Below, piece after piece: positions 13,360 to 31,149 of a stretch of 64,000 bases of DNA (position 1 is the first letter of the stretch; the number at the start of each line of letters is the position of its first letter). Below the pieces are notes generated by a model, which had not been told where the DNA came from, did no database searches, and saw only the letters and a program-made list of their open reading frames with translations. A program made the translations under genes and the position numbers. This stretch comes from a bacterium (GTDB lineage Bacteria > Bacteroidota > Ignavibacteria > Kapaibacteriales > Kapaibacteriaceae), in NCBI GenBank assembly GCA_036834845.1, contig DAITNB010000005.1, positions 37,677 through 101,676 on the forward strand. Reading direction: 5' to 3'.

Positions 13360-13457
13360 GAATTTAGGAAGTATTTTTGCAGGCTTTGGCTATAGCTGTG
13401 TAGCACCAAATACGGTGGCAACACGTCAAAGCCGCATTCCTCACGTTCAGTACTCCC

Positions 13458-16400: not shown

Positions 16401-16565
16401 TTAGGTGCCGATCCAAACGCGCAAGCGAGCCATCACTCGGCAAATGCCAACACGGTTCGAAACACCGGCAAAGAAGTTGGTCGCAACGAGTTATGTCCGT
16501 GTGGATCTGGCAAGAAGTTCAAGGCCTGCCATGGCTTGAACGGCGACACCACCTACTCAGGATAA
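13458..16565 (+). CDS. secA: Preprotein translocase ATPase SecA
   Basis: The N-terminus is MLKFLQSILGGSKHDKDVKALRPIVDQIN. DEAD-like motors are present. The C-terminal zinc finger is CPCGSGKKFKACHG. Confidence 0.97.
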   Translation: MLKFLQSILGGSKHDKDVKALRPIVDQINAIYETYSSLSDEQLRGKTDEFRERIAESVASLVEEATAIRERLRTDLTIEHAERSDLYARISANEREQFETVQAALDEILPEAFAAVKETCRRLVGHTYMVVGNEVTWDMVPYDVQLIGGIVLHQGKIAEMGTGEGKTLVSTLPMYLNALAGRGVHLVTVNDYLARRDREWMRPIFDRLGIVTGCIQSEMRPEQRLEQYAADITWGTNNEFGFDYLRDNMVNDASDMVQRGHWFAIVDEVDSVLIDEARTPLIISGPVTAGSTEQAFVEMKPRVQRLVDAQARLVNGLVAEAERLLGSTAKEDREKAGMALLRSNRGMPKQSKLMKLLQDPDNLKLMRDTELDYLKEQGQRMQIIDQELFFTVDEKNHQIDLSDKGRELLSTAQEDVEMFVIPDIATQMSALEGDASIGADEKTLRRDELMRVFSDRSDRIHIVNQLLRAYALYVRDDEYVVQDGKIKIVDEFTGRILEGRRYSDGLHQAIEAKEGVFVQEDTQTFATVTLQNYFRLYHKLAGMTGTAETEAAEFWQIYKLDVVAIPTNRPVQRKDLDDFIYRTKREKYNAVVEAVQAELAKGRAVLVGTTSVEVSELLSKMLKRAGVNHNVLNAKQHQREAEIVANAGKRGAVMIATNMAGRGTDIKLDADVKAAGGLAIIGTERHEARRIDRQLRGRAGRQGDPGSSQFFISLEDDLMRLFGGERIAAVMQRLKVPDGEPIQSPLVTRSVENAQKKVESNNFGVRKRLLEYDNVMNQQREVIYDRRRHALMGERLRSEILEYVRELAEVWYDEYRELGTAEDFANEVRVSMLCDPRITDNEFTSLRKEEIVQRVVDAAEEYYDRKESMLGHEFMSALERIAALRSIDDEWREHLRSMDDLKEGIYLRAYGQKDPILEYKQEAYKVFLELITQINKATVSFAFKYFPQAAAEQRPAAPVLKPTVTPTRHLQFSHPSATSAPLGADPNAQASHHSANANTVRNTGKEVGRNELCPCGSGKKFKACHGLNGDTTYSG

Positions 16566-17720
16566 TCATTCTACACGTGCTCCATCCTCCAGCGACTCTG
16601 GAGGGTGGAGTATCACTGTTTCGCCGCGCCGGAGTCCGGCCGTAATGGATGTTTGCAGTGCCGACCGCGGTCCGAGAGTTACATCACGGCGTTGCGCTTT
16701 TCCATCGTCTACAACGAACGTGTACCATGCATCACCATTGCGCACCAATGCACTAAGTGGCACTGTAACTGCCTCGGCATTTTCCCACAACACAATTGAT
16801 GCGTCTACCTTATATGCATCTCCGAGCAATGCCGATGGTGTTTCCACCATTGCAATCACATCTACTCTCTTTTCTTCTACACCCAGAGAGCTAACCTTCG
16901 TGCGCGCAGCGGGTTCAATGCGTCGAACAGTAGCGCGCAACGTATCTTCGCCGCCCCACTGAGTTACAAGCACTACGTGTCCAACTCGCACACGCACAGC
17001 GTCTGTGCTTAACACATCTATCACAAGCTCTTGCACGGCGGGATCACCTACTTCGAGAAGAGGAGTTCCAGCGGGAAGTGTGCGCTCATTTTCCTCGAAT
17101 CGGCGCAGTACAACGCCTCCTACAGGCGAATAAATCTCTATGCGCTGACCCGGTTGCGCCGCAAGTGAGGCACGTGCCGCCTTAGCTTCGAAGTCCGCGA
17201 TGGAGATTCGCGACAATAACGCTTCCCTCTCTCTCTGAAGTTGAACCATGGCGTCGCGAGCATTCTCTGCCTGTTCCTTTGGTACTGCACCATTTGTTAA
17301 CAAACGTTGCATCCGTTCGTTGCGTCGAATACTCTGTTCCAACTGCGGCTCTATTGCCGATAACCGCTGGCGTGCCTCTGTTACCACAATGGTAGCGGCT
17401 TCCGACCGTGCATTTGCCTCGGCACGCTGACGTGCGTCCATGGGAGGGGGCAGGTACCATGCCACAACCTGACCCACCTGAACAGTGTCTCCGGGTTCGA
17501 GGGCTATTCGTTGAACCAATCCGGTACTGGGCATGGAGATCGTGGTGCGGTTTGCATACCGAACACGTGCCTCGGCATCTATGGATTGCCGAAGCATTCC
17601 GATTGACACCACGGAAGTCTCTACGCGGATGGGCTTGGGCAAGAGACTAATGATGATGAAGCCCACTACCACTACTGCGGTAATGATCCATCCGAGATGT
17701 TTGGGTTTCCGAATTCGCAT
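16566..17720 (-). CDS. HlyD-family periplasmic adaptor (membrane fusion protein) of the tripartite ABC exporter
   Basis: It has one N-terminal transmembrane segment, then coiled-coil and beta-barrel segments. It lies 2 nt downstream of the FtsX permease. Confidence 0.8.
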
Positions 17721-17722
17721 AG

Positions 17723-20086
17723 TTATTCGCGTGTTTTTAGCACGGCAATGAGATCGAGAGTGTTTAGTCTGCGGCGAATAAAGAGTCCACTAACAATTGC
17801 CACGATAACAATTATCAGTGTGCCGGTTCCAAGGTTCTTCGAAGAAATGAGGAAGGGAAATCGGAATAGGTCTGTTGCCAAAGCATCAGGCAGCGTAGAT
17901 GCTAGAGCCGTGCCTAGGAGCATGCCTAATGGCAGTGCCACAAGAGTGAGAATGCCTTGCTCCCCAAAGAGCACCACAGCAATCTCGGTTTTCGTAAAGC
18001 CGAGTACGCGTAAACTCGCGAGTTCGTTACCACGTTCAGAAAGTGCGATACGTGCGGAATTGTACACAACACCGAAGGCAATAATGGCTGCAAAGGCCAC
18101 TAAATATGCCGATGACACATCCATGTTTTCTTTGTAGTTCTCGTCGAAGCTCTTCATTGCAACAGAGCGCAACATCACTCCCGCAATTGCTGGCGTGTTC
18201 TTAACGGCGGCATAGAACTTGTCTAACTCTTTGGCATCAACACGCAAGTAGGCACCACTTACGCTACCCTGCTCGCGAAGGAAGGTATTTAGCGATGATG
18301 ACAGCATGTATACCTGCACACCCATCATCTCATCTACCAGCGCAGAAACGAGCATGCTCGCTTCTCTTCTGTCGCCCTCGAGCAGAGTTACCTGAACAGT
18401 ATCACCTATTCTGGCGCCCATATTTCTGGCGAGGAAGGAAGACATAGTAAGCCCGGTGTCCGCAACTGTTACGGGAATGCCGTCCATAGTTACCAAACGG
18501 TGCATGCGTGCCTCCGGTGTAACACCAACGATGGCTGTACGCTTTACATGGCTTCCATACCGAATGTCCGCTGGAGTTGCGCGAAACGCCTCTACGGTTA
18601 CTACACCCGGCAGGGAGTATAAATCGTACACTGCCTGCGGCGATCGCGGCATCACGAAGGTTATCATCGCATCTTCTCGAGATGCCCTGTTAAACTGAAC
18701 GTCAATTATAGTGTCGAACATTTCGAACATGTATCTGCCTACCACTAACACCGTCATTGCCAATGCAATGGAAAACACGCCAACAGTAGCCCGTATCGGT
18801 CTGCGCATGATATTTCGCAATATCATGCGCATCACAGGATCGAGGTTTCGAAGAAAGGCCAAACGTTCTAACACTCCGGCTTTGTATCGTGCTGGCGCTT
18901 CTGGACGCATTGCGTCGGCAGGAGGTAGTCGTAGCGCTGTGCGGACGGCTCCTAGCGCTCCTAATGTTGCAGCAATCATACTAATTGCGATAGCACCAAG
19001 AATCACACCCTCGGGCATGTCGAATCGCAGAACCGGAAAACGATAGAACCGCGTGTAGAGCGTAACCAGCCAGTCGCCAATAACATATCCGCCAGCTAAC
19101 CCAACAACAGTACCGCCCGCTACCGATACTATACCGAAGCCCACGTAATGAATGGCAATCTGCGTGTTAGAGTACCCGAACGCCTTGAGAATAGCAATGT
19201 ACATGCGTTGCGTACCAACTAATCGCAGCAGAGCAATGTTGAGAAGAAAAATAGCTACACCGAGAAATATCGTGGGAACGATCACTGCCTGTGCCTGAAG
19301 CTGCGCAATTTCGTCGCTAAGAAACCGGTGTGATATCTGGTCTTCTCGTCCAATGGCGCCGGTAGATCCATACGGTTTAAGTATTACATCGATCGCCTCG
19401 ATTACGCTGCGTTCGTTAGCGCCATACTCTAACCGAATTGATGCACTATTGAATGCCCCCTTCATATCGTAGGCAGCAGAGAGCGCCTCTCGACCCATCC
19501 ACATAATCCCGTATCTCTTATTGTCTATCATAAAGGTTCCGGGCCGCACCTCGAGAACATGCTCTGGAGAGAGGGCTGTTGCAACAACTGTTAACCATCG
19601 CTTTCTACCATTTATGATTGCCGCAAATCTGTCGCCCTCGGTAAACCCGTTGGCGTCTGCAAAGGCGGTAGATACCATCACTTCGTTATCGGAGCCCGGA
19701 CGTATCCAACGGCCGCTTCGAATATGCAGCTTATTGAGAAGGGGCTGCCCATTCTCTGGAACACTCACGATAACCCCGCTTGCGGGGTCCGACAGTCCGG
19801 GCACATCCAGCATCACCTCTGTTACCACCCGTGTCTCAACACCAGCTACTCCTCCCACCGATGCCAGGCGCATCTGTATACTTTCTGGAACGCGGCGTGC
19901 ATTTACAAACACATCTGCGAACTGCGACGCTTCGTAATACGCCTGCTGGGTTAACACCAACGATGCGTGCACACTGCGAAACGCCACAAAATTGGCAACA
20001 CCTGCTCCTACCACTAACACTATCGCGAGTATCTGACCACGGAGGTGGCGGATTTCTCGAAACAGCTTCTTTGTTAGGGCCTGCAT
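17723..20086 (-). CDS. ABC exporter permease with duplicated FtsX domains (YbbP/MacB-like, ~787 aa)
   Basis: There are two FtsX-like 4-TM modules separated by large periplasmic domains. I place the start at Met29 (20086), which leaves 4 nt to the ATPase stop. Confidence 0.85.
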
Positions 20087-20090
20087 ACGT

Positions 20091-20873
20091 CTACCACGAC
20101 AATTCGGATGGACGTTTCTTGCGGGAAGGGCTCGATACCTCCACAATCTCGCCACTGCGCATTCGAACAACTCTATCGGCCATATCTGCTATACCGGCGT
20201 TGTGCGTGATAAGCGCTACAGTGGTGTTGAGTTCGCGATGAATCTTCTCAATTACGTCTAACACCAAGATGCCCGTGGAAAAGTCTAATGCGCCTGTTGG
20301 TTCGTCGCACAACAACACGTCTGGACGTTTTGCAATGGCACGTGCTATCGCTACACGTTGTTGTTCGCCCCCTGACATTTGAGACGGGAAATGGTTCATT
20401 CGCTCGCCAAGACCCACCAAGTCGAGAGCGTCTTCTGCCTTCATCGGACTGTCTGCGATGTCTGTAACGAGGCGCACGTTTTCTAGCGCCGTTAGACTCG
20501 GAATGATATTATAGAACTGGAATACAAAGCCAACTGAATGACGGCGATACGCGGTTAGTTGCGCGTCCGTGGCGTTTGTGAGGTCTGTGTTGCGAAACCG
20601 CACGTGGCCACTCGAGGGAACGTCTAGCCCACCAAGAATATTCAGCAGAGTGGATTTTCCGCTACCGGAAGCGCCAAGGATTACAAGCAGTTCGCCACTT
20701 TCAATGGTGAGGGATACGTTTCGCAATGCCTGTACCGTTACCTCGCCCATCACGTACGTTTTTGTGATGCTGGATACTGCAAATATTGGGTTACTATGAT
20801 GCGCCGTGCTCTCCACAGGGGCGCAATGTACGCACGTACTTCGAGTGGGTTGCCATTCGGCACCTACATGCAC
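20091..20873 (-). CDS. ABC transporter ATP-binding protein (MacB/LolD-like)
   Basis: The Walker A is GASGSGKST. The signature is [15 protein letters not shown]. The Walker B is [11 protein letters not shown]. The ORF-track start is a GTG, and an internal GTG at 20816 is an alternative. Confidence 0.9.
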
Positions 20874-21646
20874 TCGCGAATGGAAACATTGCCGTTGTGC
20901 TCTATCGTAATGTACTGCGATGGCTTATCGGTCCAACAGCCCGAGTTCAGGTAGCGAACATCATCCACCATGATGTCTATTGATCTGTGTGTGTGGCCGC
21001 AGAACACCACCTGCGCATTGTGCTTGCGCTTGCCATGCAGTGCGGCGTCGTGCCCTACCTTGTCGCTTAACCGTAACCACTTTTTGCTGGTTCGCTTAAC
21101 CCAGCGAGATGCACGATGTTTTGGATCGACTTTCTGAATAACAAGATACATCCAGGATGCAACGGCTGTTATAAGTGCGTGTTCGGTTATCCACTTATCA
21201 AACTGATGCCCGTGAATGGCAAGGTGGGTAACACCTGCATGCTCCCACACATACTCTTCGTGCACTGGTACCCCTAGCAGGTGTGTGAGTATCTCGGACA
21301 CTCCCCCATCGTGGTTTCCTACCACCCAAACTACATCGATGTTCTTTTTGGGATTGGACGTTTTGCGAATGAACGACAAAAACTTCCAGTCATCGCGCGT
21401 GAGTCTCTTAAAGTTGAGATCGTCAAACACGTCCCCGTTCAGTATGAGACGCTTGAACGTTAACATACGGAGGAGTTCTACAAGACGCTTCGAACGCGAA
21501 ACATCAGAGCCCAAATGAATGTCCGACACGATTACCGTGTCGAGGTCCACAGTATGTTCCACGTGGACGGGCTGAAGCTCTTCCTCTCGAAAGCTGTGTT
21601 CGCTATCTATCTGGTCGGGATCTGAAGGGTCGGAATGCATAGGCAT
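20864..21646 (-). CDS. Calcineurin-like metallophosphoesterase, LpxH (UDP-2,3-diacylglucosamine hydrolase)-like
   Basis: It has DIHLG...GDVFDD...GNHD...GHTH metallophosphatase motifs. I place the start at Met29 (21646) to avoid a 128-nt overlap with the upstream gene. Confidence 0.7.
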
Positions 21647-22385
21647 GCTGAGCGAAGTAGTTCTTAGGAAACGCGTCTCCAATTCCATACGCCGTGGGTT
21701 TAGCTCCTTCTGGAAGGTGAGCCGTTCCAAAGATCCAATCCCACACCGCTAACTTCGTGGAAAAGTTGCGATTATGCGCTTCGTCATCAGTTGCATGGTG
21801 CCACCGGTGCATTTCCGGACCATTAATCACTCGCTGAAGCGCTCCGCTACGCACATCAATGTTTGAGTGAATGTACATGCCCCACACCGCATCAATACAA
21901 CCCTTGATAACCGCTACTTCTGGCGATGCGAAGAGAACGATAGGCAGAAACTCTACCGTTTGATTAATGAGAATTTCCAGCGAATGAGACCTGCTTCCAC
22001 TAAGCCAGTCCACATCGGCCGTGGAATGATGCGCCTCGTGTATCCGCCAGAGTATTGCGGACCTGTGCTGAAGTCGGTGAAACCAGTAGATGTAGAAGTC
22101 GTGCAGCACAAGGAAACCCACCACCTGCACCCAGAGTGGCAACGCCCGTATTGTTTCCACGCGAGAAATGGCTGTGGAGGAATCTATCCAGCCCAAAGCG
22201 CCAAAAATCACCAACCCCAAGACATAACTTTGCACCAATGTGTACCAGAAGAAATCATTGAAGAATCCTGGTCGGAACACTCGTTGCCCCTTCGTATACG
22301 GGAACACTCTTTCCAGCGCAATCAAAACAATTGCGCTTAGCATGGTGATGGCCAGAGTGGTATATGCCAAATGGTCCGATTGCAT
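21603..22385 (-). CDS. Fatty acid hydroxylase superfamily (sterol desaturase family) di-iron membrane enzyme
   Basis: Three histidine boxes are present: HDFYIYWFHRLQH, HEAHH and HRWHH. It has hydrophobic TM segments. Confidence 0.8.
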   Translation of the reverse strand: MQSDHLAYTTLAITMLSAIVLIALERVFPYTKGQRVFRPGFFNDFFWYTLVQSYVLGLVIFGALGWIDSSTAISRVETIRALPLWVQVVGFLVLHDFYIYWFHRLQHRSAILWRIHEAHHSTADVDWLSGSRSHSLEILINQTVEFLPIVLFASPEVAVIKGCIDAVWGMYIHSNIDVRSGALQRVINGPEMHRWHHATDDEAHNRNFSTKLAVWDWIFGTAHLPEGAKPTAYGIGDAFPKNYFAQHAYAFRPFRSRPDR

Positions 22386-23281
22386 CAGGCAGGAACTTCC
22401 AATGATTGGACGCGACGCAGCTTCTCGCGGGCACCCAGCTCACTTTCGTATACACGCTTTACACCATCACCGAGCGCGAGTTCGATATCACGTATGTCTC
22501 GAACGAGTCTTTCTAAACCGCCTAGTTCAACGCTTGCGGCTTGATCCGTTCCCCACATTGCTCGGTCGAGTGTGATATGCCGCTCTATAAACGCAGCACC
22601 CAATGCCACTGCTGCATACGTTGTGGCTAACCCTACTTCATGTCCGGAATAACCAATTGGGATTGCCGGATAAAGTTCACGGAGTGTTTCTATCATGCGC
22701 AGATTTAACTCCGAGGCCGGACATGGATAGCTGGATGTGCTATGAGCCACCAGCAACTCGTTCTCGTTTAGTTGGCTAATTGCCATTGTGATTTCTTCCA
22801 TCGTAGACATGCCGGTGGAGATCATAAGGGGCTTGCCTGTTTTCTGCATAGATCTCAGTAGCTCGACATCGGTAAGCGACGCCGACGCTGCTTTGTAAAA
22901 GGGTACGTTAAAGTGGTCTTCCATAAATGCCACTGCCTCTGCATCCCAGCAGGACACGGTCCAATCAATACCGAGTTCCTTGCAATAGGTGTCTATCTCC
23001 CGGTACTGCTCGGCCGTAAACTCAACCTTGTGTCGATAGTCGATATACGTCATCCTACCCCAAGGTGTATCGCGCTCCTTCATCCACTGGTCTTTAGGGA
23101 CACAAAGCTCTGGTGTGCGCTTTTGAAACTTTACACAATCCGCGCCGGCAGCGGCTGCCCCCTGAATCATCTTCTTGGCTACGTCTGCAGAGCCGTTGTG
23201 GTTGATGCCGATTTCGGAAATGATGTACACAGAACTACCGCCACCAATAGTGCGCGTTCCGATGTTGCGTGTTGCGGTCAT
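22385..23281 (-). CDS. NeuB-family (N-acylneuraminate / ulosonic acid) PEP-condensing synthase, TIM-barrel part only
   Basis: YIISEIGINHNGS, KFQK and GYSGHE fit the NeuB/PseI/SpsE TIM-barrel domain. At 298 aa it is too short for the C-terminal SAF domain. Confidence 0.8.
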   Translation of the reverse strand: MTATRNIGTRTIGGGSSVYIISEIGINHNGSADVAKKMIQGAAAAGADCVKFQKRTPELCVPKDQWMKERDTPWGRMTYIDYRHKVEFTAEQYREIDTYCKELGIDWTVSCWDAEAVAFMEDHFNVPFYKAASASLTDVELLRSMQKTGKPLMISTGMSTMEEITMAISQLNENELLVAHSTSSYPCPASELNLRMIETLRELYPAIPIGYSGHEVGLATTYAAVALGAAFIERHITLDRAMWGTDQAASVELGGLERLVRDIRDIELALGDGVKRVYESELGAREKLRRVQSLEVPA

Positions 23282-23335
23282 ACCTTCACCTTTGGGAATT
23301 GTGTAAGACGTAGTTGCTAATGTGAGAGAGGGGGC

Positions 23336-24142
23336 TTACCAGGTAGTAAAGCCACCGTCGACAATGAGGTTTGCGCCGGTCATGTAGGCCGATGCGTCGG
23401 ATGCTAGAAACACCACTGCACCGGCAAAGTCTGTCCTGCTTGCCATACGCTGCAGTGGGGTTCGTTTCGAATAGGCATCCACGAAATGGTTGTCTTGCGA
23501 GTTTTCAACGCCGCCGGGCGACAAGCAATTGGCTCGTACCCCCCTGCTACCCCAATACGTGGCGATGTATCGCGTAAGCTGCACTACGGCACCCTTACTT
23601 GTTGGGTACGCAGCGCTTTTGATAAACACCTGATCTCCGTCCGGCGTTTTGTAGAGGGATTGATCCGGAGCAACAACTCCGTATGTAGAAGCGATGTTGA
23701 TGATTGAACCACGACCACTCCTTGCCATTACGCTGCCAAGTGTTCTGCTCATGAGGAAGATGCCCGTGACGTTTACATCCAGCACCTTGCGGAAGAGCGC
23801 CGTTGGATAGGTTTCGAGTCCGATCGGAGAAGTTGTAAGGGCGTTCTCCACCGCATCGTTCAGTGCGGCGTTGTTTACCAGTACGTCTACCCGACCATGC
23901 TCTTCGATGATCCTGTCTCGCAGTTCGCCAACGCTGTCTTCGTCCGTAACATCTAATGCCACGCCAACATGGCCTACCCCAAGCCCTACGGCAACGTGTT
24001 CTGCTGCCTTCGCGGACAGGTCGCACGCATAAACAATAGCCCCTGCTTGGGCCAAGGCATTACAGTGTTCGCGTCCCAACAATCCTGCGGCGCCGGTTAC
24101 CACGGCAACGCGTCCATCGAGTCTGAATCTCTCTCCGCTCAT
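23336..24142 (-). CDS. Short-chain dehydrogenase/reductase (SDR)
   Basis: The Rossmann motif VTGAAGLLG is present. An NNAA motif and a YxxxK region are present. Confidence 0.85.
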   Translation of the reverse strand: MSGERFRLDGRVAVVTGAAGLLGREHCNALAQAGAIVYACDLSAKAAEHVAVGLGVGHVGVALDVTDEDSVGELRDRIIEEHGRVDVLVNNAALNDAVENALTTSPIGLETYPTALFRKVLDVNVTGIFLMSRTLGSVMARSGRGSIINIASTYGVVAPDQSLYKTPDGDQVFIKSAAYPTSKGAVVQLTRYIATYWGSRGVRANCLSPGGVENSQDNHFVDAYSKRTPLQRMASRTDFAGAVVFLASDASAYMTGANLIVDGGFTTW

Positions 24143-25470
24143 CGTAGTTCCGTAGATAGACGTGGCTTGGTGTTAAAGTTTCCTGTTTTGCGGAACACCG
24201 GCTCCATCGGTGCACCTCGCAGCATATCTGCCACAGTGCGATGTACCACTCCCTGGTGGAGCATGGGAATTACTTCCCTGAATGCATCAAGCGTGAGCGC
24301 CAGGTCTTCTACTGTGTGGGCGTAGGACAGCGTTTGGAAGCCACCCCAGAGGATGCCAAACCGCAGAAATTCCTGCTGAACCAGAGACTTTGCCATGAGT
24401 GGGTCTACAGCTCGTTCATCGAACTTGAGCATGGTGCGTGCACCCAGTCCGCGCACGCTGATGTAGTCTGCTGCCTCGTGTGCAATAATCTCTTCGATCC
24501 CGCTCCGCAATAGGTTGCCTGCTTCTTCTACTCTGAGCGGTACGTCGTGTTCGCGCAGGAATGTTACGGTTGCCTTTGCAGCAGCCAGTGAGAGGGCTTC
24601 GCCGCCAAAGGTTGTGAAAAAGAACACGTCTTTCTCGCAGAGTCGCATAATGTCTGCGCGACCAGTAAGAACAGACAAAGGCATTCCATTCGCTATTGCC
24701 TTCGAGAAACACGCCAGGTCTGCCGCAACACCAAACCGTTCCTGCGCGCCCCCTACTGCCAAACGAAACCCTGTCCACATCTCGTCGAAGATTAACACGA
24801 TACCCCGGGCCGTGCACAATTCACGAACCTCGCGGAGATAATTGTCTTCCGGTTGCTCGAACACCATGGGTTCGAGAATCACCGCAGCGGTGTCTTCGTC
24901 GATGGCACGGTGCAAGCTTTCGATGTTATTGTATTCGAATGTGTAGGTAAGGTCTCGCGTGCTTTGAGGAATGCCCATGTTTCGGTCTGTGGTGCCCACG
25001 AACCAATCGTGCCAGCCATGATAGCCGCAGCAGAGCACGGTAGACTTCCCGGTGTACGCACGCGCCAAACGAATGGCGGCGCTTGTTACATCGCAGCCCG
25101 TCTTTGAATAACGCACCATCTCAGCGTTCGGAATAACGGTGTTGAGAAGCTCGGCAACCTCTACTTCTAGGGGATGCATCAACGAGAACGTGATGCCATC
25201 GCGAAGCTGTTTCTCAATGGCTTTGTCTACAACTTCATGACCGTAACCGAGAAGGAGCGGACCCACAGCCATGGTGTAGTCGAGATACCTATTGCCGTCT
25301 ACATCCCAAATATGAGCCCCCTTTGCACGCTGTGCGTATACAGGAGCAACGCCGCGAACATGTTGTCCGGGACCCTTTGCAAGCGTTTGCGTTTGCGCTG
25401 GAATTCGTAACTCGGCCCGCCGTAGAATGTCCAGCGACGAAACGATTGACGGGTACTGAAGTTCAGGCAT
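24139..25470 (-). CDS. Class-III aminotransferase, glutamate-1-semialdehyde aminomutase-like
   Basis: Alignable GSA-AT-like blocks include GYGHEVVDKA, LCCGYHGWHDW and FDEMWTGFR. I place the start at Met52 (25470), 2 nt after the transketolase-C stop. The ORF track extends to 25623. Confidence 0.8.
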   Translation of the reverse strand: MPELQYPSIVSSLDILRRAELRIPAQTQTLAKGPGQHVRGVAPVYAQRAKGAHIWDVDGNRYLDYTMAVGPLLLGYGHEVVDKAIEKQLRDGITFSLMHPLEVEVAELLNTVIPNAEMVRYSKTGCDVTSAAIRLARAYTGKSTVLCCGYHGWHDWFVGTTDRNMGIPQSTRDLTYTFEYNNIESLHRAIDEDTAAVILEPMVFEQPEDNYLREVRELCTARGIVLIFDEMWTGFRLAVGGAQERFGVAADLACFSKAIANGMPLSVLTGRADIMRLCEKDVFFFTTFGGEALSLAAAKATVTFLREHDVPLRVEEAGNLLRSGIEEIIAHEAADYISVRGLGARTMLKFDERAVDPLMAKSLVQQEFLRFGILWGGFQTLSYAHTVEDLALTLDAFREVIPMLHQGVVHRTVADMLRGAPMEPVFRKTGNFNTKPRLSTELR

Positions 25471-26410
25471 GAACGGCCTCGGCATGATGAAGGGGTAAGG
25501 TCTGAAGTCGGCCCTGGATAGTCTCAGCCACATGGTCTCCACGCAGCTTCTCATTATCCAACACGTCTGCCAGCAACCCTGGAGTGAACCACGTGTTGAG
25601 AGCAATTGGAAGCACATCGGCAACTTCGGCGTGGTTCATCAGTGTCTCGGCCACAATGGTTGCCAACCCGCCAGCTCTGAAATGATCTTCGAGCGTTACA
25701 ACAAGACGCGAATTTCTTGTAGCGCGGAGTATCATGGCTTCGTCTACAGGAGACAACATCCGCATGTTAACTACACACACAGATACTCCCTCGGATGCCA
25801 GAAGCGCAGCGGCATGGACTGCTTGGCGAACCAGTGTTCCGTAGGTAAGAATGGTAACTGTTGCAACCTCGGGGTCGATGTCTGAGACGATCTCTGCAAC
25901 GCCAAGCGCAAATGTGTTGCTGTGACCTACCGCAGATGGCAGGTTTGTATATCGAACGTACGTTGGTTTACCACTGCGCACAATGTGCGGAAGTCCAATT
26001 ATCATATCGTCTTCGTCTGCCGGACAAAACACGTGCACGTTTGGAATGCCTCTCATTATTGCCACGTCTTCTATGGCCTGATGCGTAGGACCATTGGCAT
26101 CACTCAGTACTCCTGGCACCATTCCCACCATTATCACCGGCAAAGATGAAATCCCTACGTCATCGCGAATAAACTCGAAGGCACGTAGCGTAAGGAATGC
26201 GGCAAGCGCATGAGTAAAAACAACCCTGCCCCGCGACGCCAGGCCTGCAGCCACTCCTATCATGGTTTGCTCTGCAATACCTACGTCTACGAATCTGCTT
26301 CCGAGAAGGGGCGGAATGTTGCGCATGTGTCCGCGATTCTCGGCAGTGAGAATAACCACGCGTTTGTCTGTGCGCACAGTTTCGAGGAGAAAACGTTCGT
26401 AAGGTATCAT
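25463..26410 (-). CDS. Transketolase C-terminal section (pyrimidine-binding and C-terminal domains)
   Basis: FVDVGIAEQTMIGVAAGLA and GPTHQAIEDVAIMRGIPN are transketolase pyrimidine-domain motifs. Confidence 0.85.
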   Translation of the reverse strand: MIPYERFLLETVRTDKRVVILTAENRGHMRNIPPLLGSRFVDVGIAEQTMIGVAAGLASRGRVVFTHALAAFLTLRAFEFIRDDVGISSLPVIMVGMVPGVLSDANGPTHQAIEDVAIMRGIPNVHVFCPADEDDMIIGLPHIVRSGKPTYVRYTNLPSAVGHSNTFALGVAEIVSDIDPEVATVTILTYGTLVRQAVHAAALLASEGVSVCVVNMRMLSPVDEAMILRATRNSRLVVTLEDHFRAGGLATIVAETLMNHAEVADVLPIALNTWFTPGLLADVLDNEKLRGDHVAETIQGRLQTLPLHHAEAVHA

Positions 26411-27264
26411 CGAACAATGAGTGTTTCTGAATAAAGTTCAGCATTGCCGTTGCCGTGCAGTTCTTCTATCAACGCCACAACTTCTTCGTTGGTAAAGTTG
26501 CAGAACCAGCGGTCTGCCCTGTCCGTAATACTCGCCACGCCCCTTCCCCGCTGCGTGTCGGCTATAACTACCGTGGGAGCGCCGTTGCACGCCGGCACCG
26601 AACGGAAGGTTTCGTCCATGTCCGAGAAGTTGTGACCGTCGCAACGGAGCACGTTCCATCCAAACGCTTCAAACTTTGTAGAAAGTGGCTCGAGAGGAAT
26701 AAGCTCTTCTGTTCGCATGTTGGCTTGGAACAAGTTGCGGTCTACTATTGCCACAAGGTTGTCTATTCCGTGTGCAGAAGCAACAAGGCATGCTTCCCAG
26801 ATGCTTCCTTCGTTCAACTCGCCGTCTCCCAACACAACAACAACGCGCGCATCGGACCCGGTGATCCTCATGTCGAGGGCCATTCCCATGCCTACGCTGA
26901 GTAAGTGACCCAGTGAACCGGAGTGAAACTCCACACCGGGTATCGCTCTATTGGGGTGCCAGTAGATATGATCGCGTACGGAGAGATGATTCTTCAGTCG
27001 GTCTACTTCGATGTACCCCAGTTCGGCAAGCACACCATAAAGTGCAGGCACGTCATGCCCCTTCGATAACAACAGAACGTCGCGGTCTGCACTGGCAATT
27101 GTCTCCGGCGCAATGCGCAGATACCTTGTGTAGAGGAACACGAGTATATCTGCACACGAAAGAGATGCACCTGCAAAACATCCGCCGTTTGTAGACATTC
27201 GAAGGATGTGTTCCCGCACGCGAAGAGCTATGCGTGGGAGTTCCGAGATGGGAGTTGCTGCCAT
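26407..27264 (-). CDS. Transketolase N-terminal section (TPP-binding)
   Basis: The TPP motif region is GSLGHLLSVGMGMALD...LGDGELNEGSIWEA. Confidence 0.85.
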   Translation of the reverse strand: MAATPISELPRIALRVREHILRMSTNGGCFAGASLSCADILVFLYTRYLRIAPETIASADRDVLLLSKGHDVPALYGVLAELGYIEVDRLKNHLSVRDHIYWHPNRAIPGVEFHSGSLGHLLSVGMGMALDMRITGSDARVVVVLGDGELNEGSIWEACLVASAHGIDNLVAIVDRNLFQANMRTEELIPLEPLSTKFEAFGWNVLRCDGHNFSDMDETFRSVPACNGAPTVVIADTQRGRGVASITDRADRWFCNFTNEEVVALIEELHGNGNAELYSETLIVR

Positions 27265-28082
27265 GCGTCCAGTGGGGATATGTGATCGAACTGTCGGACC
27301 GTTGAGGGATCGATGGTTTTAAGCTCGGGCAAGTGATGCCGGTACCAACTCACTCCGTTCAGGTGGGCGTTAACGGACGCTATCTCCGGATGCTCTGCAA
27401 GTAGAGCTAGTATCTTCTCGGTAGAGAAGTTTTGGTCCTGTGGAAACAGCTGGTCGTACACCGCCTTAGCAAACACATAGTCTTCCGGGTAGTCAATTGT
27501 CCAACGATGCGTAGCGCTTAGGTCCACCCCACCGGGCATCAATACGTTGGCGGTACGCACTGCGGGATTGGCATTCCACATCCAAGGTGTGGTGTGCTCG
27601 CGCTCGAATGGTGCCTCTGCAGCATACCACGCTCGTTCCAGAACGCGCATGCTCATCACCTCCACATCGTTGCCATCCGGCCACGACGGAGGATGAAGGT
27701 TGCTCACAAAATCAACTGCTCCGTCGGCGTCTAGATATGTCGCAATTACGGTATCAATAATCGCCGGGTCGATGAGTGGACAATCCGAGGGCACCTTTAC
27801 CACCACGTCTGCGCCGTAGGCCATAGCAGCGCGGTAGTGACGGTCTAACAAATCGTTTTCGTGTCCACGATAAACGTCCATCTTCATCTGGCTGCACAGC
27901 TCCACGATACCTTCATCGGAGCTGTTTTGGGTTGTGGCTACAACCACGCGGGTAGCTAGAGTACTGCGAGTAACTCTCTCGATGAATCTTCGGAGAAGGG
28001 GCTGTCCGGCAAGCGGGAGCATCACCTTTCGTGGCAGTCGTGTAGATCCAATGCGTGCCTGACATACAATGAGTATTCGCAT
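27228..28082 (-). CDS. Cytidylyltransferase (acylneuraminate cytidylyltransferase / SpsF / KdsB-like)
   Basis: The N-terminus MRILIVCQARIGSTRLPRKVMLPLAGQPLL is the signature of the CMP-sugar synthetase family. The gene overlaps the transketolase-N start by 37 nt. Confidence 0.8.
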   Translation of the reverse strand: MRILIVCQARIGSTRLPRKVMLPLAGQPLLRRFIERVTRSTLATRVVVATTQNSSDEGIVELCSQMKMDVYRGHENDLLDRHYRAAMAYGADVVVKVPSDCPLIDPAIIDTVIATYLDADGAVDFVSNLHPPSWPDGNDVEVMSMRVLERAWYAAEAPFEREHTTPWMWNANPAVRTANVLMPGGVDLSATHRWTIDYPEDYVFAKAVYDQLFPQDQNFSTEKILALLAEHPEIASVNAHLNGVSWYRHHLPELKTIDPSTVRQFDHISPLDAWQQLPSRNSHA

Positions 28083-28086
28083 GTTG

Positions 28087-29109
28087 CTACGATGCCTTCC
28101 GAACTGATGAAGGAGGAACAGAAACTCTTATAGGAGAAGCAAGTGCGCGGAGTACTTCTTCACAAACCTCTGCGATGTTTGCTGCCGAGCGTCCACCATT
28201 TTGAATTGGACATAACTCGCGGAGTGTTTCCATGGGAAAATCGCTGTACACGGTTTTGCCCAGAGCAATACCCACGTAGGCACAGGACGAGTACTTGGTA
28301 ACCAAGGTGTTGCAATGAGCAATCATGGGTTCTATTGGCCTACCATGATACACCAGCGCTTCCGGTGCCCAACGCTGAATCTCTAGAACGGCACGCTCGA
28401 TATTTTCATTTGGATGGAGCTTAAATATCAGTTGTCTATCTGCCGCAATACGTCTAGCTCTCTCGATGGTCCACTTACGGTTTTCCATTTTGAATGTCTC
28501 ACGAGCGTCGCTTGTAGCAACTAACACATAGTTGCGATGTTCGAACGGCGTGCTGTGAAACTCCGCGCAATTGTCGAAGTTCGGAATGCCTGTTACGCTG
28601 ATCTTCTCACGCCGTGCCCCCTTCCTCACAAAGAGGTCGCGATACCCCTCGGATGCCACACACATGCGCACGTATGCATCAGACAAACCGAAGGTAGATG
28701 TTGAAGCAAGGTACCGCGGCAGACCCAGGTACTTAACGAGGTAGTACGCCATGTTTTCGGGGTCGGTCATCCCCTCCTGCACCAACACTACTCTGCCATG
28801 GCGTATGTTTCTGGGTACGATGAGATCGCTGCATGTAACCACCAAGTCGTAGTGGTGCTGCATACCGCGGTAGTCTATATTCTTGTTTTGACTCTCCAGA
28901 TATGCAAGAGCTCGGTTCTGATGTCCAATTCCGGCTACGGTCCACTCGATAAGTCTGCTTCTTTCGAGCACCTCTACCCAGCCGTCCGTATAATGTGGGG
29001 TGAACCAACAATCGTGATGCTCGAGGAAGGCAGCAATCTTCACCATCATGGTGGTTTGGTTCATCGAGCCGCATATAAAGAGTATGCGATTCCGTTGTGC
29101 AGTAGGCAT
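28087..29109 (-). CDS. GT-B-fold protein of unclear function (PseG/MurG-like or capsule-biosynthesis-like). First gene of the string.
   Basis: The N-terminal Rossmann-like ILFICGSMNQTTMM points to a GT-B fold. No catalytic signature is recognisable, so the call rests on context. Confidence 0.35.
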   Translation of the reverse strand: MPTAQRNRILFICGSMNQTTMMVKIAAFLEHHDCWFTPHYTDGWVEVLERSRLIEWTVAGIGHQNRALAYLESQNKNIDYRGMQHHYDLVVTCSDLIVPRNIRHGRVVLVQEGMTDPENMAYYLVKYLGLPRYLASTSTFGLSDAYVRMCVASEGYRDLFVRKGARREKISVTGIPNFDNCAEFHSTPFEHRNYVLVATSDARETFKMENRKWTIERARRIAADRQLIFKLHPNENIERAVLEIQRWAPEALVYHGRPIEPMIAHCNTLVTKYSSCAYVGIALGKTVYSDFPMETLRELCPIQNGGRSAANIAEVCEEVLRALASPIRVSVPPSSVRKAS

Positions 29110-29254
29110 AATGTGCGAATCTCAACACGGCGTATCACGTCTGTATAACGAACGTGTGAAGGAATCGTACGGCGATAACTCTAATACTATCAGCGAACTA
29201 CACGTTTCTCCACAAGAACGTTGACGCACGTAGCCAAGCAACGTAACACTGGCA

Positions 29255-30274
29255 TTATGGACGAAAGGCAGGATTCGTAAGGATAGACGAATCAGTAAGT
29301 GCCTTCATAAAGGCAACGAGCGCGGCCTTCTCTGCGTCCGACAGGCCCAGCTTTTTTACCCGCGGGTCTTTATTCGGGAAGCTTGTGCCACCATCATTAT
29401 AGTGGGTAACAACGTCTTCGAGAGTTCGCATCTTTCCCTTCTCGCTGTCGCCGGTGCTCATGTAGGGTGGCGTAAGCGCTATGTTCCGCAGAGTTGGGGT
29501 CTTGAACTTTCCTTCGTCCATGGGATCTTTCGTTACGTTATATCTGCCGCGATCGAAGTAGTGATGGAAGAGGCCGATGTTATGGTATTGATCGTCTGTA
29601 AAGTCTGGACCGCCGTGACACGACGAGCACATCGTTTTTGCGCTGAAGAAGAGGTCCATTCCCTGTTTTTCCTGTTCGGTAAGAATGGATCGATTGCCCC
29701 TAATGTATCTATCGTATCTGCTGTTCGCGCTCACTAACGTGCGCTCGAACGTAGCAATGGCCTGCATGGTTCGGTGCATGGTAACTGCAGTGTCGCCAAA
29801 GGACTGCACCCAGAGGCCTCGATATTCGTCCGACTGAATCAACTGAGCAACGGCAATAGTATCTGCGTTCATCTCGGCTGAATTCCGAAACGCCGCCATG
29901 GCCTGCTCTTCAAGGGTAGCTGCGCGTCCGTCCCAAAAATGCGCCCTTCGGTACCCGGCATTTACAATCATGGGCGCATTCCGTGTTCCTAACGCCCCGT
30001 TTACTCCGGCACTTACTGTGCGCGGGGCATCAGAGAAAAACACTTCCGGCCTATGGCACGAGGCACAGGCAACAGCACCCGTACTTGATAAGCGCCTATC
30101 ATAGAAGAGCTGCTTGCCGAGTGTTGCTTTTGCCTCGGAGAACGGATTATCCCGTGGCACAGGCATAGCCGGCAGATGAGACGGAACGTTCGGGAAGCGC
30201 TCGGGCAATGGCTCGAGTGGGTCTGCTGCACAGCCCCCTACCAAGAGTGCAACCATTGCCAGACGCCTAATCAC
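29255..30274 (-). CDS. Di-haem cytochrome c peroxidase (CCP/MauG family)
   Basis: It has a signal peptide, two CXXCH motifs (CASCH, CSSCH) and a distal Met/Trp region. The length is 339 aa. Confidence 0.9.
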   Translation of the reverse strand: MIRRLAMVALLVGGCAADPLEPLPERFPNVPSHLPAMPVPRDNPFSEAKATLGKQLFYDRRLSSTGAVACASCHRPEVFFSDAPRTVSAGVNGALGTRNAPMIVNAGYRRAHFWDGRAATLEEQAMAAFRNSAEMNADTIAVAQLIQSDEYRGLWVQSFGDTAVTMHRTMQAIATFERTLVSANSRYDRYIRGNRSILTEQEKQGMDLFFSAKTMCSSCHGGPDFTDDQYHNIGLFHHYFDRGRYNVTKDPMDEGKFKTPTLRNIALTPPYMSTGDSEKGKMRTLEDVVTHYNDGGTSFPNKDPRVKKLGLSDAEKAALVAFMKALTDSSILTNPAFRP

Positions 30275-31149
30275 AGATCGGATAGTCCTTGCAACTTGTC
30301 GAGAAATTCTTGTGCTTCTCTCCCCTTCAATCCGGCGCCTTCCAAAACGGACTGATCCGGAGTTGTGGTGCTGATGATGCCGCGAAGAACGGCAAGCTCT
30401 TTCTTCGAGAATCTCTGCGAATGAAGGATGTAGTCTTCGAATGCTTCAAAGGCAATTGGTACGGCTGCCTTTACCACCGACGCTAAGGCCTCTCCATAGA
30501 CGCGTATCTCGTACTGCGCATGGGGGTCTATCCGAAGCCGCATAAAATGGAAGAGATTGTGCAGATCAATCTTCCAGTACCACTCGGTGTAGTTGGACAC
30601 GGGCAGATTGATGCGGGCAATCTCGCGGGCAAGGTTGGTTCCCAGAAGCTCTTGGTACTCTGCATAGAGTGAACCTTGCGTGGTTTCCATCACGGTGCGC
30701 ATCCGCTCGGCTTCTTCCGGTGAAAAGGTCTCGTCTGATCTTCCTTGCTTGTTTGTGGTGCTCTGCGGACGGATATGTTCTACCGAGGGCACGTAGAACT
30801 CGTCCTTCATCTCCGAGTACCGTCCGGAGTATTCATTCACATTTGCGGTGCGATGCCGAATCCACTGCCGAGCAACGAAGATTGGAAGCTTCACATGGAA
30901 CTTAAACTCAACCATCTCGAAGGGGGTGGTGTGCAGGTGGCGCATGAGATAGCGAATGAGTCCACGGTCCTCATGAACCTTTTTCGTGCCAGACCCATAG
31001 GAAACGCGGGCGGCCTGCACAATTGCAGAGTCGTCTCCCATTACGTCGATTAATCGAACGAATCCCTTGTCGAGACATGGGATCTCTTTGCCAATAAGTT
31101 GCTGAATTTCTGCTGTCATAACGACAAAGATAGAGTCCAGGTTGTACAT
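30271..31149 (-). CDS. thyX: FAD-dependent thymidylate synthase ThyX
   Basis: The ThyX motif RHRTANVNEYSGRYS is present. The gene overlaps the CCP gene by 4 nt. Confidence 0.9.
   Translation of the reverse strand: MYNLDSIFVVMTAEIQQLIGKEIPCLDKGFVRLIDVMGDDSAIVQAARVSYGSGTKKVHEDRGLIRYLMRHLHTTPFEMVEFKFHVKLPIFVARQWIRHRTANVNEYSGRYSEMKDEFYVPSVEHIRPQSTTNKQGRSDETFSPEEAERMRTVMETTQGSLYAEYQELLGTNLAREIARINLPVSNYTEWYWKIDLHNLFHFMRLRIDPHAQYEIRVYGEALASVVKAAVPIAFEAFEDYILHSQRFSKKELAVLRGIISTTTPDQSVLEGAGLKGREAQEFLDKLQGLSDL

Follow-up and report, generated by a model that had tools for sequence, protein, structure and literature searches.

Several described systems resemble parts of the operon analysed here. The KDN route of Bacteroides thetaiotaomicron comprises a KDN-9-P synthase, a KDN-9-P phosphatase and a CMP-KDN synthetase, while Kdo8N formation in Shewanella involves an oxidase, KdnB, and an aminotransferase, KdnA, which act on Kdo. 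Tannerella forsythia has soluble TagB-like GT-B transferases (Tanf_01245/TFUB4_00887/BFO_1060) that use CMP-NulO donors and have a protein-linked glycan as acceptor, and members of the BFO_1060 family are CMP-Pse/Leg-derivative transferases, supported by knock-outs, with HP and D/E-D/E-G motifs (PMC5420450). The NulO cluster of Leptospira contains an extra trio—a CMP-NulO synthetase, an aminotransferase and a NulO synthase—to which no function has been assigned and for which no lipid link is reported (PMC3438082), unlike the operon in this study, which includes lipid-linked genes. On the lipid side, MprF/HpnL-type systems combine a PF03706 transmembrane domain with a cytoplasmic lipid-modifying enzyme, as a fusion or an adjacent gene, and the OlsF/OlsE ornithine-lipid system (PMC12971839) includes OlsE, which the hydroxylase found here resembles. 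Finally, type VII exporters such as MacAB, DevBCA and YbbAP combine, as the operon does, a permease containing FtsX domains with a periplasmic adaptor and a separate ATPase of MacB type. In line with the initial annotation, no characterised O-antigen or NulO locus corresponds to the gene set, all NCBIfam equivalog scores are below cutoff, and we found no description of such a pathway in the literature searched.

A conserved operon in Kapabacteria and Ignavibacteria

The first finding of this study is that the gene run, located in the window (the whole 64,000-nucleotide stretch of DNA that was analysed), is a genuine and tightly packed operon. It consists of 12 consecutive minus-strand genes from 29109 down to 16566, according to the ORF listing and start-codon analysis, rather than the 13 initially counted (the title of that annotation also gives 12), and the domain calls of its proteins were all confirmed by Pfam. 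The junctions are, as originally described, overlaps (1-38 nt) or gaps of 2-4 nt, with a single gap of 54 nt. From the first gene, a GT-B transferase, a 4-nt gap leads to the cytidylyltransferase, followed by overlaps of 37 nt with the N-terminal transketolase subunit, 4 nt (ATGA) between the two transketolase subunits, 8 nt (start at 25470) or 23 nt with the aminotransferase and 4 nt with the short-chain dehydrogenase (SDR). The 54-nt gap precedes the NeuB-type gene, which overlaps the hydroxylase gene by 1 nt (TGATG); the hydroxylase overlaps the metallophosphoesterase by about 38 nt, which in turn overlaps the ABC ATPase by 10 nt (or is separated from it by 47 nt if the latter starts at the GTG at 20816), with gaps of 4 nt and 2 nt before the permease and the adaptor. 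Upstream, also on the minus strand, are genes for ThyX (30271-31149) and a CCP_MauG peroxidase (29255-30274), separated from the first gene by 145 nt. This region (29110..29254, minus strand), the only long non-coding gap on that strand, has no Rfam match and is probably the promoter region and the 5' limit of the operon; two other loci (L001/L002) have a similar gap of about 90 nt. At the other end, the stop of the last gene (16566) abuts that of a convergent secA (16565). In a scan for terminators and for promoters other than those of Bacteroidota type, the number of sites did not exceed that in shuffled sequence, and no site fell into the short spaces between genes.

Comparison across genomes showed that eight of these genes—encoding the TagB-like GT-B, CTP_transf_3, the two transketolase subunits, the aminotransferase, the SDR, the NeuB-type protein and FA_hydroxylase—form a core whose order is kept in 60+ species-level genomes (63 loci tallied) of Kapabacteria and Ignavibacteria, which are Chlorobi-lineage Bacteroidota, with amino-acid identities of 45-80%. 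Finding this order again in 60+ loci of different species, whose flanks are unrelated, shows that the gene run is more than chance, and the genes are a conserved unit, as first proposed, rather than scattered. The CMP-activating enzyme and the transferase are present in every locus compared, and their genes adjoin even in loci without the rest of the operon. The split transketolase is found in 50 of the 63 loci and absent from 13, one locus (L053) having a fused 652-aa gene in its place.

Predicted sugar-acid enzymes

The NeuB-family PEP-condensing synthase (22385..23281, minus strand; PF03102, 254 bits) scores below the NeuB and PseI equivalog cutoffs. It retains the metal-binding histidines together with E23, E233, K51 and Q53, but, unlike the synthase of the KDN/Neu5Ac-9-phosphate route, has no SAF domain and differs at the position of E134 of Neisseria meningitidis, which is S, C, A or T in 60/60 orthologues, a clade-specific change in the active site. 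It matches a 290-aa SAF-less protein in the PDB (6ncs, E 4e-30). The KDN/Neu5Ac-9-phosphate route has in common with the operon family a synthase of the NeuB family whose substrate is a sugar phosphate, a CTP_transf_3 enzyme and a KdsC/YrbI-family HAD phosphatase. In Ignavibacteria, an extra HAD phosphatase of KdsC/KDN-9-P type is encoded between the SDR and NeuB genes (40 loci), which scores above the KdsC/YrbI subfamily cutoff and reaches 157 bits against the KDN-9-P phosphatase model (cutoff 180), suggesting a phosphorylated ulosonate intermediate. The operon in the window has no HAD phosphatase. Its SDR, class-III aminotransferase, split transketolase, TagB-like transferase and membrane hydroxylase are additional to the KDN route.

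The SpsF/KdsB-like cytidylyltransferase (27228..28082, minus strand; PF02348, 90.9 bits), for which KdsB and PseF equivalog scores are below cutoff, is proposed to be a CMP-ulosonate synthetase. Its best PDB match is 6oew ('Cytidylyltransferase', E 1.8e-35), which, like 6ncs, may belong to the Leptospira trio. Transketolase is split into an N-terminal, ThDP-binding subunit (26407..27264, minus strand; PF00456, 97.7 bits) and a subunit with the pyrimidine-binding and C-terminal domains (25463..26410, minus strand; PF02779, PF02780). The class-III, GSA-like aminotransferase (24139..25470, minus strand; PF00202, 170 bits) likely starts at the ATG at 25470, giving 443 aa, a choice guided by orthologue length. 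It is below cutoff for NF004856 (363, cutoff 486), and in the PDB it is related to GSA aminomutases, among others, and to the C-6' aminotransferases of aminoglycosides (E 1e-43 for the latter). The SDR (23336..24142, minus strand; adh_short_C2, 164 bits) has gluconate 5-dehydrogenase, PRK09186 and KduD as best NCBIfam matches, each below cutoff, which places it nearest to sugar-acid dehydrogenases. Kdo8N formation and aminoglycoside C-6' amination (GenB-type, PDB 7lld) follow the order proposed here, in which a sugar or sugar acid is oxidised and then transaminated ahead of activation, but the oxidoreductase of the operon is an SDR and neither an iron alcohol dehydrogenase nor a flavoenzyme. 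Together, these enzymes are consistent with a ulosonic acid that is CMP-activated and probably aminated, in line with the original proposal.

Lipid-linked genes and lineage-specific additions

The protein encoded by the first gene (28087..29109, minus strand), a soluble 340-aa transferase, has a GT-B fold in its AF2 model (pLDDT 84) and invariant motifs QEGMTDP (111-117), KLHPNE (230-235, the 'HP' motif) and LVTKYSS. A Pfam search returned nothing above cutoff, and the sole significant sequence match of the family profile in the PDB is the TagF-like polymerase Cps3D, over LITxYSS, which is a donor-binding motif. Among 17 family members, 16 match NCBIfam TIGR04396 and 14 match the BFO_1060 NulO-transferase family, for which the window protein itself scores 15.8 bits (cutoff 200). 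PseG is matched by 1/17 and NeuC by none, so that the protein is TagB/TagF-like rather than PseG-like as first annotated. By sequence it is thus closest to TagF/TagB-like enzymes and to the nonulosonic-acid transferases of Tannerella, and we propose that it may be a CMP-ulosonic acid:lipid transferase. Elsewhere, GT-B is fused within the same operon to an LPG_synthase_TM domain (at least 9 protein clusters) or directly preceded by a separate LPG_synthase_TM gene (9 loci), and this MprF-type flippase domain suggests that the acceptor is a membrane lipid, in contrast to Tannerella. The catalytic partner in this family is a GT-B transferase and not an aminoacyl-PG synthase as in MprF, and no PF03706, OlsF, Spt or flippase-domain gene is found within the window. 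In Chloroherpetonaceae, all that remains beside the GT-B gene is a flippase-like gene.

The second link to lipids is the OlsE-like membrane di-iron hydroxylase (21603..22385, minus strand; PF04116, 103 bits) with histidine boxes HRLQH, HEAHH and HRWHH, whose gene follows NeuB in 55/63 loci. Its sole NCBIfam match, aligned over the full length, is OlsE, but a score of 119 bits against a cutoff of 475 indicates that it is not an OlsE equivalog. A bona fide OlsF (708 bits, cutoff 620) is encoded right after the orthologous hydroxylase in 9 loci, and in 4 an SMR protein lies between hydroxylase and OlsF. No sugar-modified ornithine lipid was found in the literature. In Melioribacter, a GH97 gene is inserted between the NeuB and hydroxylase genes. 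The presence of the hydroxylase in the conserved core and the flippase fusions or adjacencies of the first gene bear out the lipid part of the initial annotation.

The remaining four genes are another matter. The metallophosphoesterase (20864..21640, minus strand), a lineage-specific addition with a generic Metallophos domain only, matched no LpxH model and nothing of any kind in the PDB, and the LpxH-like label finds no support. It is found in 14 loci and the HAD phosphatase in 40, never together, with 10 loci carrying neither; this mutually exclusive distribution, which is confounded by phylogeny, makes it a candidate replacement for the KdsC-type phosphatase. The ABC ATPase of MacB/LolD/DevA/YbbA type (20091..20873, minus strand; PF00005), likewise lineage-specific, is below cutoff for LolD, DevA, YbbA and MacB models. 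Its homologues lie 3' of the operon only in Kapabacteria loci. The one other ABC match, in a locus (L079) where it is 29% identical, is on the opposite strand about 4 kb downstream. The 787-aa permease (17723..20086, minus strand) has two FtsX domains (PF02687, two stretches), as in type VII ABC systems, and no NCBIfam family, and the HlyD/RND-type periplasmic adaptor, or MFP (16566..17720, minus strand; HlyD_3, HlyD_D23), scores above cutoff for TIGR01730 RND_mfp (105.5, cutoff 94.9) and below it for DevB (36.8, cutoff 129). The exporter is thus a MacB-type ABC system with an MFP, and its scores for the DevA and DevB subfamilies are below cutoff. It differs from described exporters by its double-FtsX permease, its ATPase-permease-adaptor gene order and its restriction to part of Kapabacteria. 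Furthermore, three close relatives that share the secA flank (L005, L007 and L008) lack it, so its coupling to the operon may be accidental. Exporter and phosphoesterase alike are confined to the Kapabacteria subgroup and do not belong to the conserved system. Overall, the first interpretation is partly supported: a conserved unit, an enzyme set fitting a sugar acid and a connection to lipids are borne out; the gene count is corrected, and PseG, LpxH and the membership of exporter and phosphoesterase find no support.

A proposed pathway and its alternatives

Taken together, these findings suggest, with a probability that we put at roughly 0.55, that the operon makes a CMP-activated, probably amino-substituted 3-deoxy-2-ulosonic acid and transfers it to an acceptor that is a membrane lipid or is lipid-linked. 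In the scheme we propose, in which family assignments are as found while substrates and step order are inferred, an aldose phosphate would be supplied or tailored by the split transketolase and condensed with PEP by the SAF-less NeuB-type synthase to give an ulosonate phosphate. The terminal phosphate would then be removed, in Ignavibacteria by the KdsC/KDN-9-P-type HAD phosphatase; because the window has no HAD, the metallophosphoesterase is proposed as a stand-in. The SDR would oxidise a hydroxyl, the aminotransferase would convert the carbonyl to an amine and the SpsF/KdsB-like enzyme would form the CMP-sugar, which the TagB-like enzyme with its HP motif may transfer on the inner side of the membrane. 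The lipid partner would be modified by the OlsE-like hydroxylase, possibly creating the acceptor hydroxyl. Counting against this scheme are the 13 loci that do without the transketolase, the lack of OlsF, Spt and flippase-domain genes in the window, the 10 loci with neither phosphatase candidate and the exporter's absence from three close relatives.

Four alternatives were weighed. First, in a soluble-glycan pathway, the CMP-ulosonic acid, Kdo- or NulO-like, might be used in the LPS core, in a capsule or in the O-glycosylation of proteins, with GT-B either a glycan transferase or an upstream NDP-sugar hydrolase/epimerase of NeuC/PseG type, and hydroxylase, phosphoesterase and exporter mere neighbours. 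We consider this unlikely, although it survives best: the scarcity of NeuC and PseG matches and the KdsC-type phosphatase, which implies a phosphorylated route rather than one through an NDP-sugar hydrolase, argue against it, and it can hardly account for the MprF-type flippase fusions and adjacencies, the strictly conserved FA_hydroxylase, or the Chloroherpetonaceae in which GT-B is kept with a flippase-like gene alone. Second, the locus might be a composite of independent modules, linked by synteny but with no shared product—a sugar acid, an ornithine-lipid hydroxylase (OlsE-like/OlsF) and an unrelated efflux pump—as the adjoining OlsF genes, the variable presence of exporter and phosphoesterase in one subgroup, the 54-nt gap ahead of NeuB and the Melioribacter GH97 gene would suggest. 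This is improbable in view of the hydroxylase following NeuB so regularly despite non-conserved flanks, its 1-nt overlap with the NeuB stop in the window, and the flippase fusions that place lipid-linked features also at the other end of the operon. Third, and a little less probable still, the TagB/TagF-like enzyme might move a phospho-head group from a CDP-linked phospho-sugar or polyol made by the cytidylyltransferase, yielding, instead of a glycoside, a lipid head group attached through a phosphodiester or a chain resembling teichoic acid. However, the characteristic products of PF02348 enzymes are CMP-ulosonates and not CDP-alcohols, most lineages carry the KdsC-type phosphatase, and the Tannerella transferases show that TagB-like proteins are able to use CMP-NulO donors. 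Finally, a secondary-metabolite route of amino-DAHP/AHBA type, in which an amino-aldose phosphate made as by Rif15A/B would undergo NeuB-like condensation in place of amino-DAHP synthase, is very improbable despite the parallel in enzyme classes (oxidoreductase, aminotransferase, split transketolase) and the dedicated transketolase in most loci, since there is no kinase, AHBA synthase, or downstream PKS or NRPS, 13 loci do without the transketolase, CMP-activating enzyme and transferase are always present, and the locus is not a sporadic biosynthetic cluster but core-genome in hundreds of species.

We thus favour transfer of an activated ulosonic acid to a lipid, with a translocator attached to the core that would differ by lineage: an MprF/HpnL-type flippase domain, an SMR protein or, in the window, a MacB-type ABC with its MFP. 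The locus belongs to the core genome and is not an O-antigen island, the latter being disfavoured by its housekeeping neighbours and flat GC.

Operon layout and the conserved unit

We read this operon, with a probability of about 0.55, as a lipid-head-group pathway for a CMP-activated (amino)ulosonic acid, which retains the core idea of the initial annotation and abandons its "PseG-like" and "LpxH-like" assignments, together with the phosphoesterase and exporter as conserved parts. From 29109 down to 16566, the ORF listing of the window has an unbroken run of 12 ORFs on the minus strand, not thirteen as originally counted under a title that itself named twelve. The first encodes the 340-aa GT-B protein (28087-29109), in which no Pfam family scores above cutoff. 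Pfam identifies the others, in order, as a CTP_transf_3 cytidylyltransferase (27228-28082), a Transketolase_N subunit (26407-27264), a Transket_pyr plus Transketolase_C subunit (25463-26410), an Aminotran_3 aminotransferase (24139-25470), an SDR (23336-24142), NeuB (22385-23281), FA_hydroxylase (21603-22385), Metallophos (20864-21640), an ABC ATPase (20091-20873), a double-FtsX permease (17723-20086) and a HlyD-type adaptor or MFP (16566-17720). Start-codon analysis gives overlaps of 37, 4, 8, 4, 1, ~38 and 10 nt, gaps of 4, 4 and 2 nt and a single 54-nt gap 5' of NeuB, matching the junctions first described.

Upstream of the operon, a 145-nt gap precedes genes for a CCP_MauG peroxidase and ThyX, also on the minus strand. 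ThyX (30271-31149, minus) overlaps the di-haem cytochrome c peroxidase gene (29255-30274, minus) by 4 nt, and all close relatives have this odd conserved pair directly 5' of the operon. At the other end, the stop of the convergent plus-strand secA ends at 16565 and that of the minus-strand adaptor gene at 16566, with zero intergenic bases and hence no room for a terminator between them. A scan for promoter and terminator consensus sites, which leaves out promoters of Bacteroidota type, found no more of them than in shuffled sequence and none in the short intergenic spaces, and is thus uninformative in either direction. Rfam gave zero matches across the entire window. Elsewhere in the window, an 814-aa protein (8726-11170, minus) has several Ig-type domains (Ig_3, I-set, Ig_2) and is unusually eukaryote-like for a bacterial protein.

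Close homologues of the first protein number in the thousands, nearly all in Kapabacteria, Ignavibacteria or "Bacteroidota" MAGs. A scan at one genome per species yielded at least 588 loci, the best 80 of which were taken for gene-order analysis using a tblastn matrix and ORF clustering; the counts for the transketolase pair and for the position of FA_hydroxylase refer to the 63 loci with GT-B, SDR and NeuB genes. Identity to the window proteins is 45-80% across loci. Both transketolase subunits occur in 50 of the 63 and are both absent from 13, of Ignavibacterium and Melioribacter types, and FA_hydroxylase directly follows NeuB in 55/63. This order is kept across loci, while only the closest (Kapabacteria) loci have flanks in common, so the conserved unit comprises GT-B, cytidylyltransferase, the transketolase pair where present, aminotransferase, SDR, NeuB and FA_hydroxylase. 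Homologues of these genes are not scattered in related genomes, so the original view of them as one unit stands.

The same comparison places the 3' part of the operon outside this unit. Only part of the Kapabacteria group has ABC/FtsX homologues 3' of the operon; in two other loci secA comes after the phosphoesterase (L007, and L005, where a single short unassigned ORF intervenes), and in a third (L008) the hydroxylase is followed directly by secA. The exporter is thus a lineage-specific addition, and so is the phosphoesterase, although both had been taken for parts of the system. By family, the ABC ATPase (PF00005), two PF02687 stretches and HlyD_3 make up a MacB-superfamily (type VII) exporter with an MFP, and the adaptor exceeds the generic RND-type TIGR01730 cutoff (105.5 against 94.9). 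The DevBCA half of the earlier MacAB/DevBCA-type label, which refers to a heterocyst-glycolipid exporter, is not supported, with DevA at 204.2 (cutoff 295.8) and DevB at 36.8 (cutoff 129).

Individual loci depart from the common arrangement in several ways. Melioribacter locus L030 has a complete co-directional GH97 gene (15396-17339) between the NeuB-like and FA_hydroxylase genes, as have L048 and L058. In a Thermochlorobacteriaceae MAG (L024), an N6/N4 DNA methylase gene of opposite orientation (11272-11952, minus) splits GT-B from the cytidylyltransferase, and the other operon genes are absent within 10 kb of these two. Many Ignavibacteria loci (L018, L026, L028, L032 and others) carry one or two GT9 heptosyltransferase genes ~4-6 kb upstream of GT-B, with GHMP kinase, homocysteine S-methyltransferase and LD-carboxypeptidase genes in between.

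Enzymes for a probable activated sugar acid

No biosynthetic enzyme of the operon reaches an NCBIfam equivalog cutoff, and our literature search did not find this gene set described. The NeuB-type protein clearly belongs to PF03102 (254 bits against a cutoff of 22.1). Compared with N. meningitidis NeuB, it has retained the histidines that bind metal as well as the Glu, Lys and Gln residues (H214, H235, E23, E233, K51 and Q53 recur in 58-60 of 60 orthologues), but with 298 aa it is devoid of the SAF domain, and the position of E134 is S, C, A or T in 60/60 orthologues. With these differences, and with scores of 242.7 for TIGR03569 (cutoff 399.65) and 192.2 for TIGR03586 (cutoff 340.25), we rejected a NeuB or PseI equivalog. 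SAF-less "environmental" NeuB homologues are a recognised group without an assigned product (PMC8208679). The cytidylyltransferase likewise belongs to its family (PF02348, 90.9 bits against 22.6) and falls below the equivalog cutoffs of KdsB (best score 63.9, cutoff 193) and PseF (24.8, cutoff 205.7).

The aminotransferase is class III by Pfam and GSA-like, with structural relatives in the PDB that include aminoglycoside C-6' aminotransferases; identity with HemL, the glutamate-1-semialdehyde aminomutase, was rejected (TIGR00713, 236 against 527; NF004856, 363 against 486). The SDR is closest in NCBIfam to gluconate-5- and KDG-5-dehydrogenases. Together, these affinities suggest that the two enzymes would oxidise and then transaminate a hydroxyl group carried by the sugar acid or by a precursor, the same logic by which Kdo8N is formed. 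Transketolase domains PF00456, PF02779 and PF02780 are spread over two adjacent ORFs, and the full-length equivalog cutoffs are missed because the protein is split. The transketolase may supply an aldose phosphate; the Rif15-type scheme raised initially may also apply, although the pair is dispensable in 13 loci. In locus L053, a single 652-aa ORF (~11900-13900), 27-33% identical to the two window subunits, takes the place of the pair and looks like a fused transketolase, which points to the activity, not the split, as what is retained.

A 179-aa HAD phosphatase is encoded between SDR and NeuB in 40 loci, all outside the Kapabacteria group. Its score exceeds the cutoff of the KdsC/YrbI subfamily and reaches 157 bits for the KDN-9-phosphate phosphatase equivalog (cutoff 180). 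A phosphatase of this type in the operon implies that the NeuB-type enzyme would make a phosphorylated ulosonate. The window contains no HAD phosphatase. Its type of metallophosphoesterase is found in 14 loci, none of which has the HAD gene, and 10 loci have neither; we propose that it may replace the HAD enzyme, a pattern confounded by phylogeny. Only the generic Metallophos family was found in this protein. At E<=0.01, LpxH is absent from its NCBIfam matches and no PDB chain is matched, which removes the basis for calling it LpxH-like, and its single-sequence AF2 model (pLDDT 38.6) is unusable for fold comparison. A 562-aa Metallophos protein after the hydroxylase in locus L083 (17120-18808) has PPP-phosphatase-like motifs and no BLASTP similarity to the window enzyme, and hence lends no support to a conserved phosphoesterase role. 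A second, unrelated metallophosphoesterase family of ~300 aa adjoins the operon in 14 Ignavibacteria loci by tblastn (L021, L030, L041, L042 and L044 among them), either divergent upstream of GT-B or downstream after OlsF, and is accompanied in some by an inositol-monophosphatase-family gene.

The putative transferase and the proposed link to lipids

The first gene had been described as PseG-like, an assignment that the family comparison does not support. PseG (TIGR03590) is matched by 1/17 family members and NeuC by none, and the PseG, NeuC and Epimerase_2 cutoffs are all missed, so that an NDP-sugar hydrolase or 2-epimerase was rejected. The AF2 model has a GT-B fold (pLDDT 84), and the only PDB entry that the family profile matches significantly is Cps3D, a TagF-like capsule polymerase, with the alignment covering "LITxYSS". 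Glyphos_transf is matched by 13/17 members (best 3e-7), MGDG_synth by 10/17, TIGR04396 by 16/17 (best 9e-12) and the BFO_1060 glycosyltransferase family by 14/17 (best 2.5e-10), with the Glyphos_transf, BFO_1060 and TIGR04396 matches all under curated cutoffs. BFO_1060 is one of the Tannerella forsythia transferases for Pse/Leg derivatives, knock-outs of which lose the terminal nonulosonic acid; these are TagB-like GT-B enzymes with D/E-D/E-G and HP motifs and CMP-NulO donors (PMC5420450). In the window family, a GT-B fold, an HP motif and an LITxYSS-type donor-binding motif are present, and the motifs QEG and KLHPNE are invariant. On this sequence evidence, the first gene is read as a putative cytidine-nucleotide-dependent transferase, which fits the presence of the cytidylyltransferase beside it even where the remainder of the operon is elsewhere.

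This family is compact, with 171 representatives at E<=1e-30 in a search of 1.84 billion, and several members of ~700 aa carry an N-terminal LPG_synthase_TM half (an MprF flippase or HpnL-type domain). The fusion is common to at least 9 clusters (51-100% identity) and in L083 is followed by cytidylyltransferase, TK-N, TK-C, aminotransferase, SDR, HAD, NeuB, a small ACT-like gene (15941-16336) and FA_hydroxylase. In 9 other loci, including Chloroherpetonaceae, LPG_synthase_TM is encoded by a gene of its own directly 5' of GT-B. In Chloroherpetonaceae this pair can occur alone, and only the flippase-like gene, GT-B and sometimes the cytidylyltransferase are clustered. Two unusual homologues were also seen: P0133 (L088, 944-2599), a 551-aa high-GC protein with a GT-B domain followed by the first two desaturase histidine boxes (HRYFSH, HRRHHRH), may be a decayed fusion to a membrane acyl-lipid desaturase of which the desaturase part is incomplete, and the long "fusion" P0148 looks like a frameshifted high-GC artefact and was disregarded.

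The hydroxylase belongs to PF04116 (103 bits), with histidine boxes visible in its sequence. Its sole NCBIfam match is OlsE (NF052566), full-length and, at 118.8 bits against a cutoff of 475, not an equivalog. Downstream of it, 9 loci encode a protein scoring above the OlsF equivalog cutoff (708 bits, cutoff 620), and in 4 of them an SMR protein intervenes. OlsE adds its hydroxyl group at C4 of the ornithine head group, and a review of these lipids reports no functional evidence for OlsF homologues in Ignavibacteriales and contains nothing on ornithine lipids modified with sugars (PMC12971839).

The same core is therefore joined, depending on lineage, by three translocation modules: the MprF-type domain, the SMR protein and the MacB-type ABC transporter with its MFP. 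This is the best argument available that the product may be a lipid, and that the window exporter may be functionally related to it. The main rival, in which the donor enzymes would serve a glycan-directed ulosonic acid pathway, we consider unlikely. Among the annotated genes of the window there are no Wzx- or Wzy-type families. A variable O-antigen or capsule island is argued against by the same eight genes in 60+ species, by GC flat at 0.51-0.54 across the window and by housekeeping surroundings (secA, thyX, ribosomal protein S1, 2-oxoacid dehydrogenase E2, alr, scpAB).

Candidate products and significance

In the way it works, the lipid-head-group pathway would resemble a CMP-ulosonate pathway of KDN/Kdo type coupled to a TagB-like transferase. 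The differences lie in the active site of the synthase, in the amination module, in the transketolase and in the lipid-directed architecture. The nearest published parallel that we found is a trio without assigned function in the Leptospira NulO cluster, consisting of a CMP-NulO synthetase, an aminotransferase and a NulO synthase (PMC3438082). A more specific and quite improbable reading is that the product is an undescribed class of membrane lipid with an amino-ulosonic, sialic-acid-like head group, a conserved envelope component of Ignavibacteria and Kapabacteria that any of several interchangeable modules would flip or export, namely the MprF-like domain, the SMR protein or the MacB-type ABC transporter. 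One candidate, with an OlsE-like hydroxylase and OlsF as its partner, is an ulosonic-acid glycoside of a C4-hydroxylated ornithine lipid. Another, a low-probability lead, is a neuraminic-acid-type lipid related to the "aminoglycosphingolipid" of Chlorobium limicola. According to a citation in PMC11762602, that lipid was reported once, by Jensen et al. in 1991. No Spt-like gene was recognised in the window, and named Chlorobiaceae proteins were absent from the top 120 of an orthologue search seeded from Chloroherpetonaceae.

Carriers of the operon are in culture (Melioribacter, Ignavibacterium), which puts a direct test of the hypothesis within reach. Were the sugar to go to a glycan instead, this would still be a new, widely conserved pathway of nonulosonic or octulosonic type. 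If the lipid-head-group reading is true, the large "SAF-less NeuB" clade would gain a function, and TagB-like enzymes would act as CMP-ulosonate:lipid transferases coupled to MprF-type flippase domains. A deep lineage—Ignavibacteria, Kapabacteria and some Chlorobiales, with hundreds of species-level genomes—would then have a conserved uncharacterised pathway that equips a membrane lipid with an amino sugar acid resembling sialic acid, adding an extra lipid class to bacterial envelopes.
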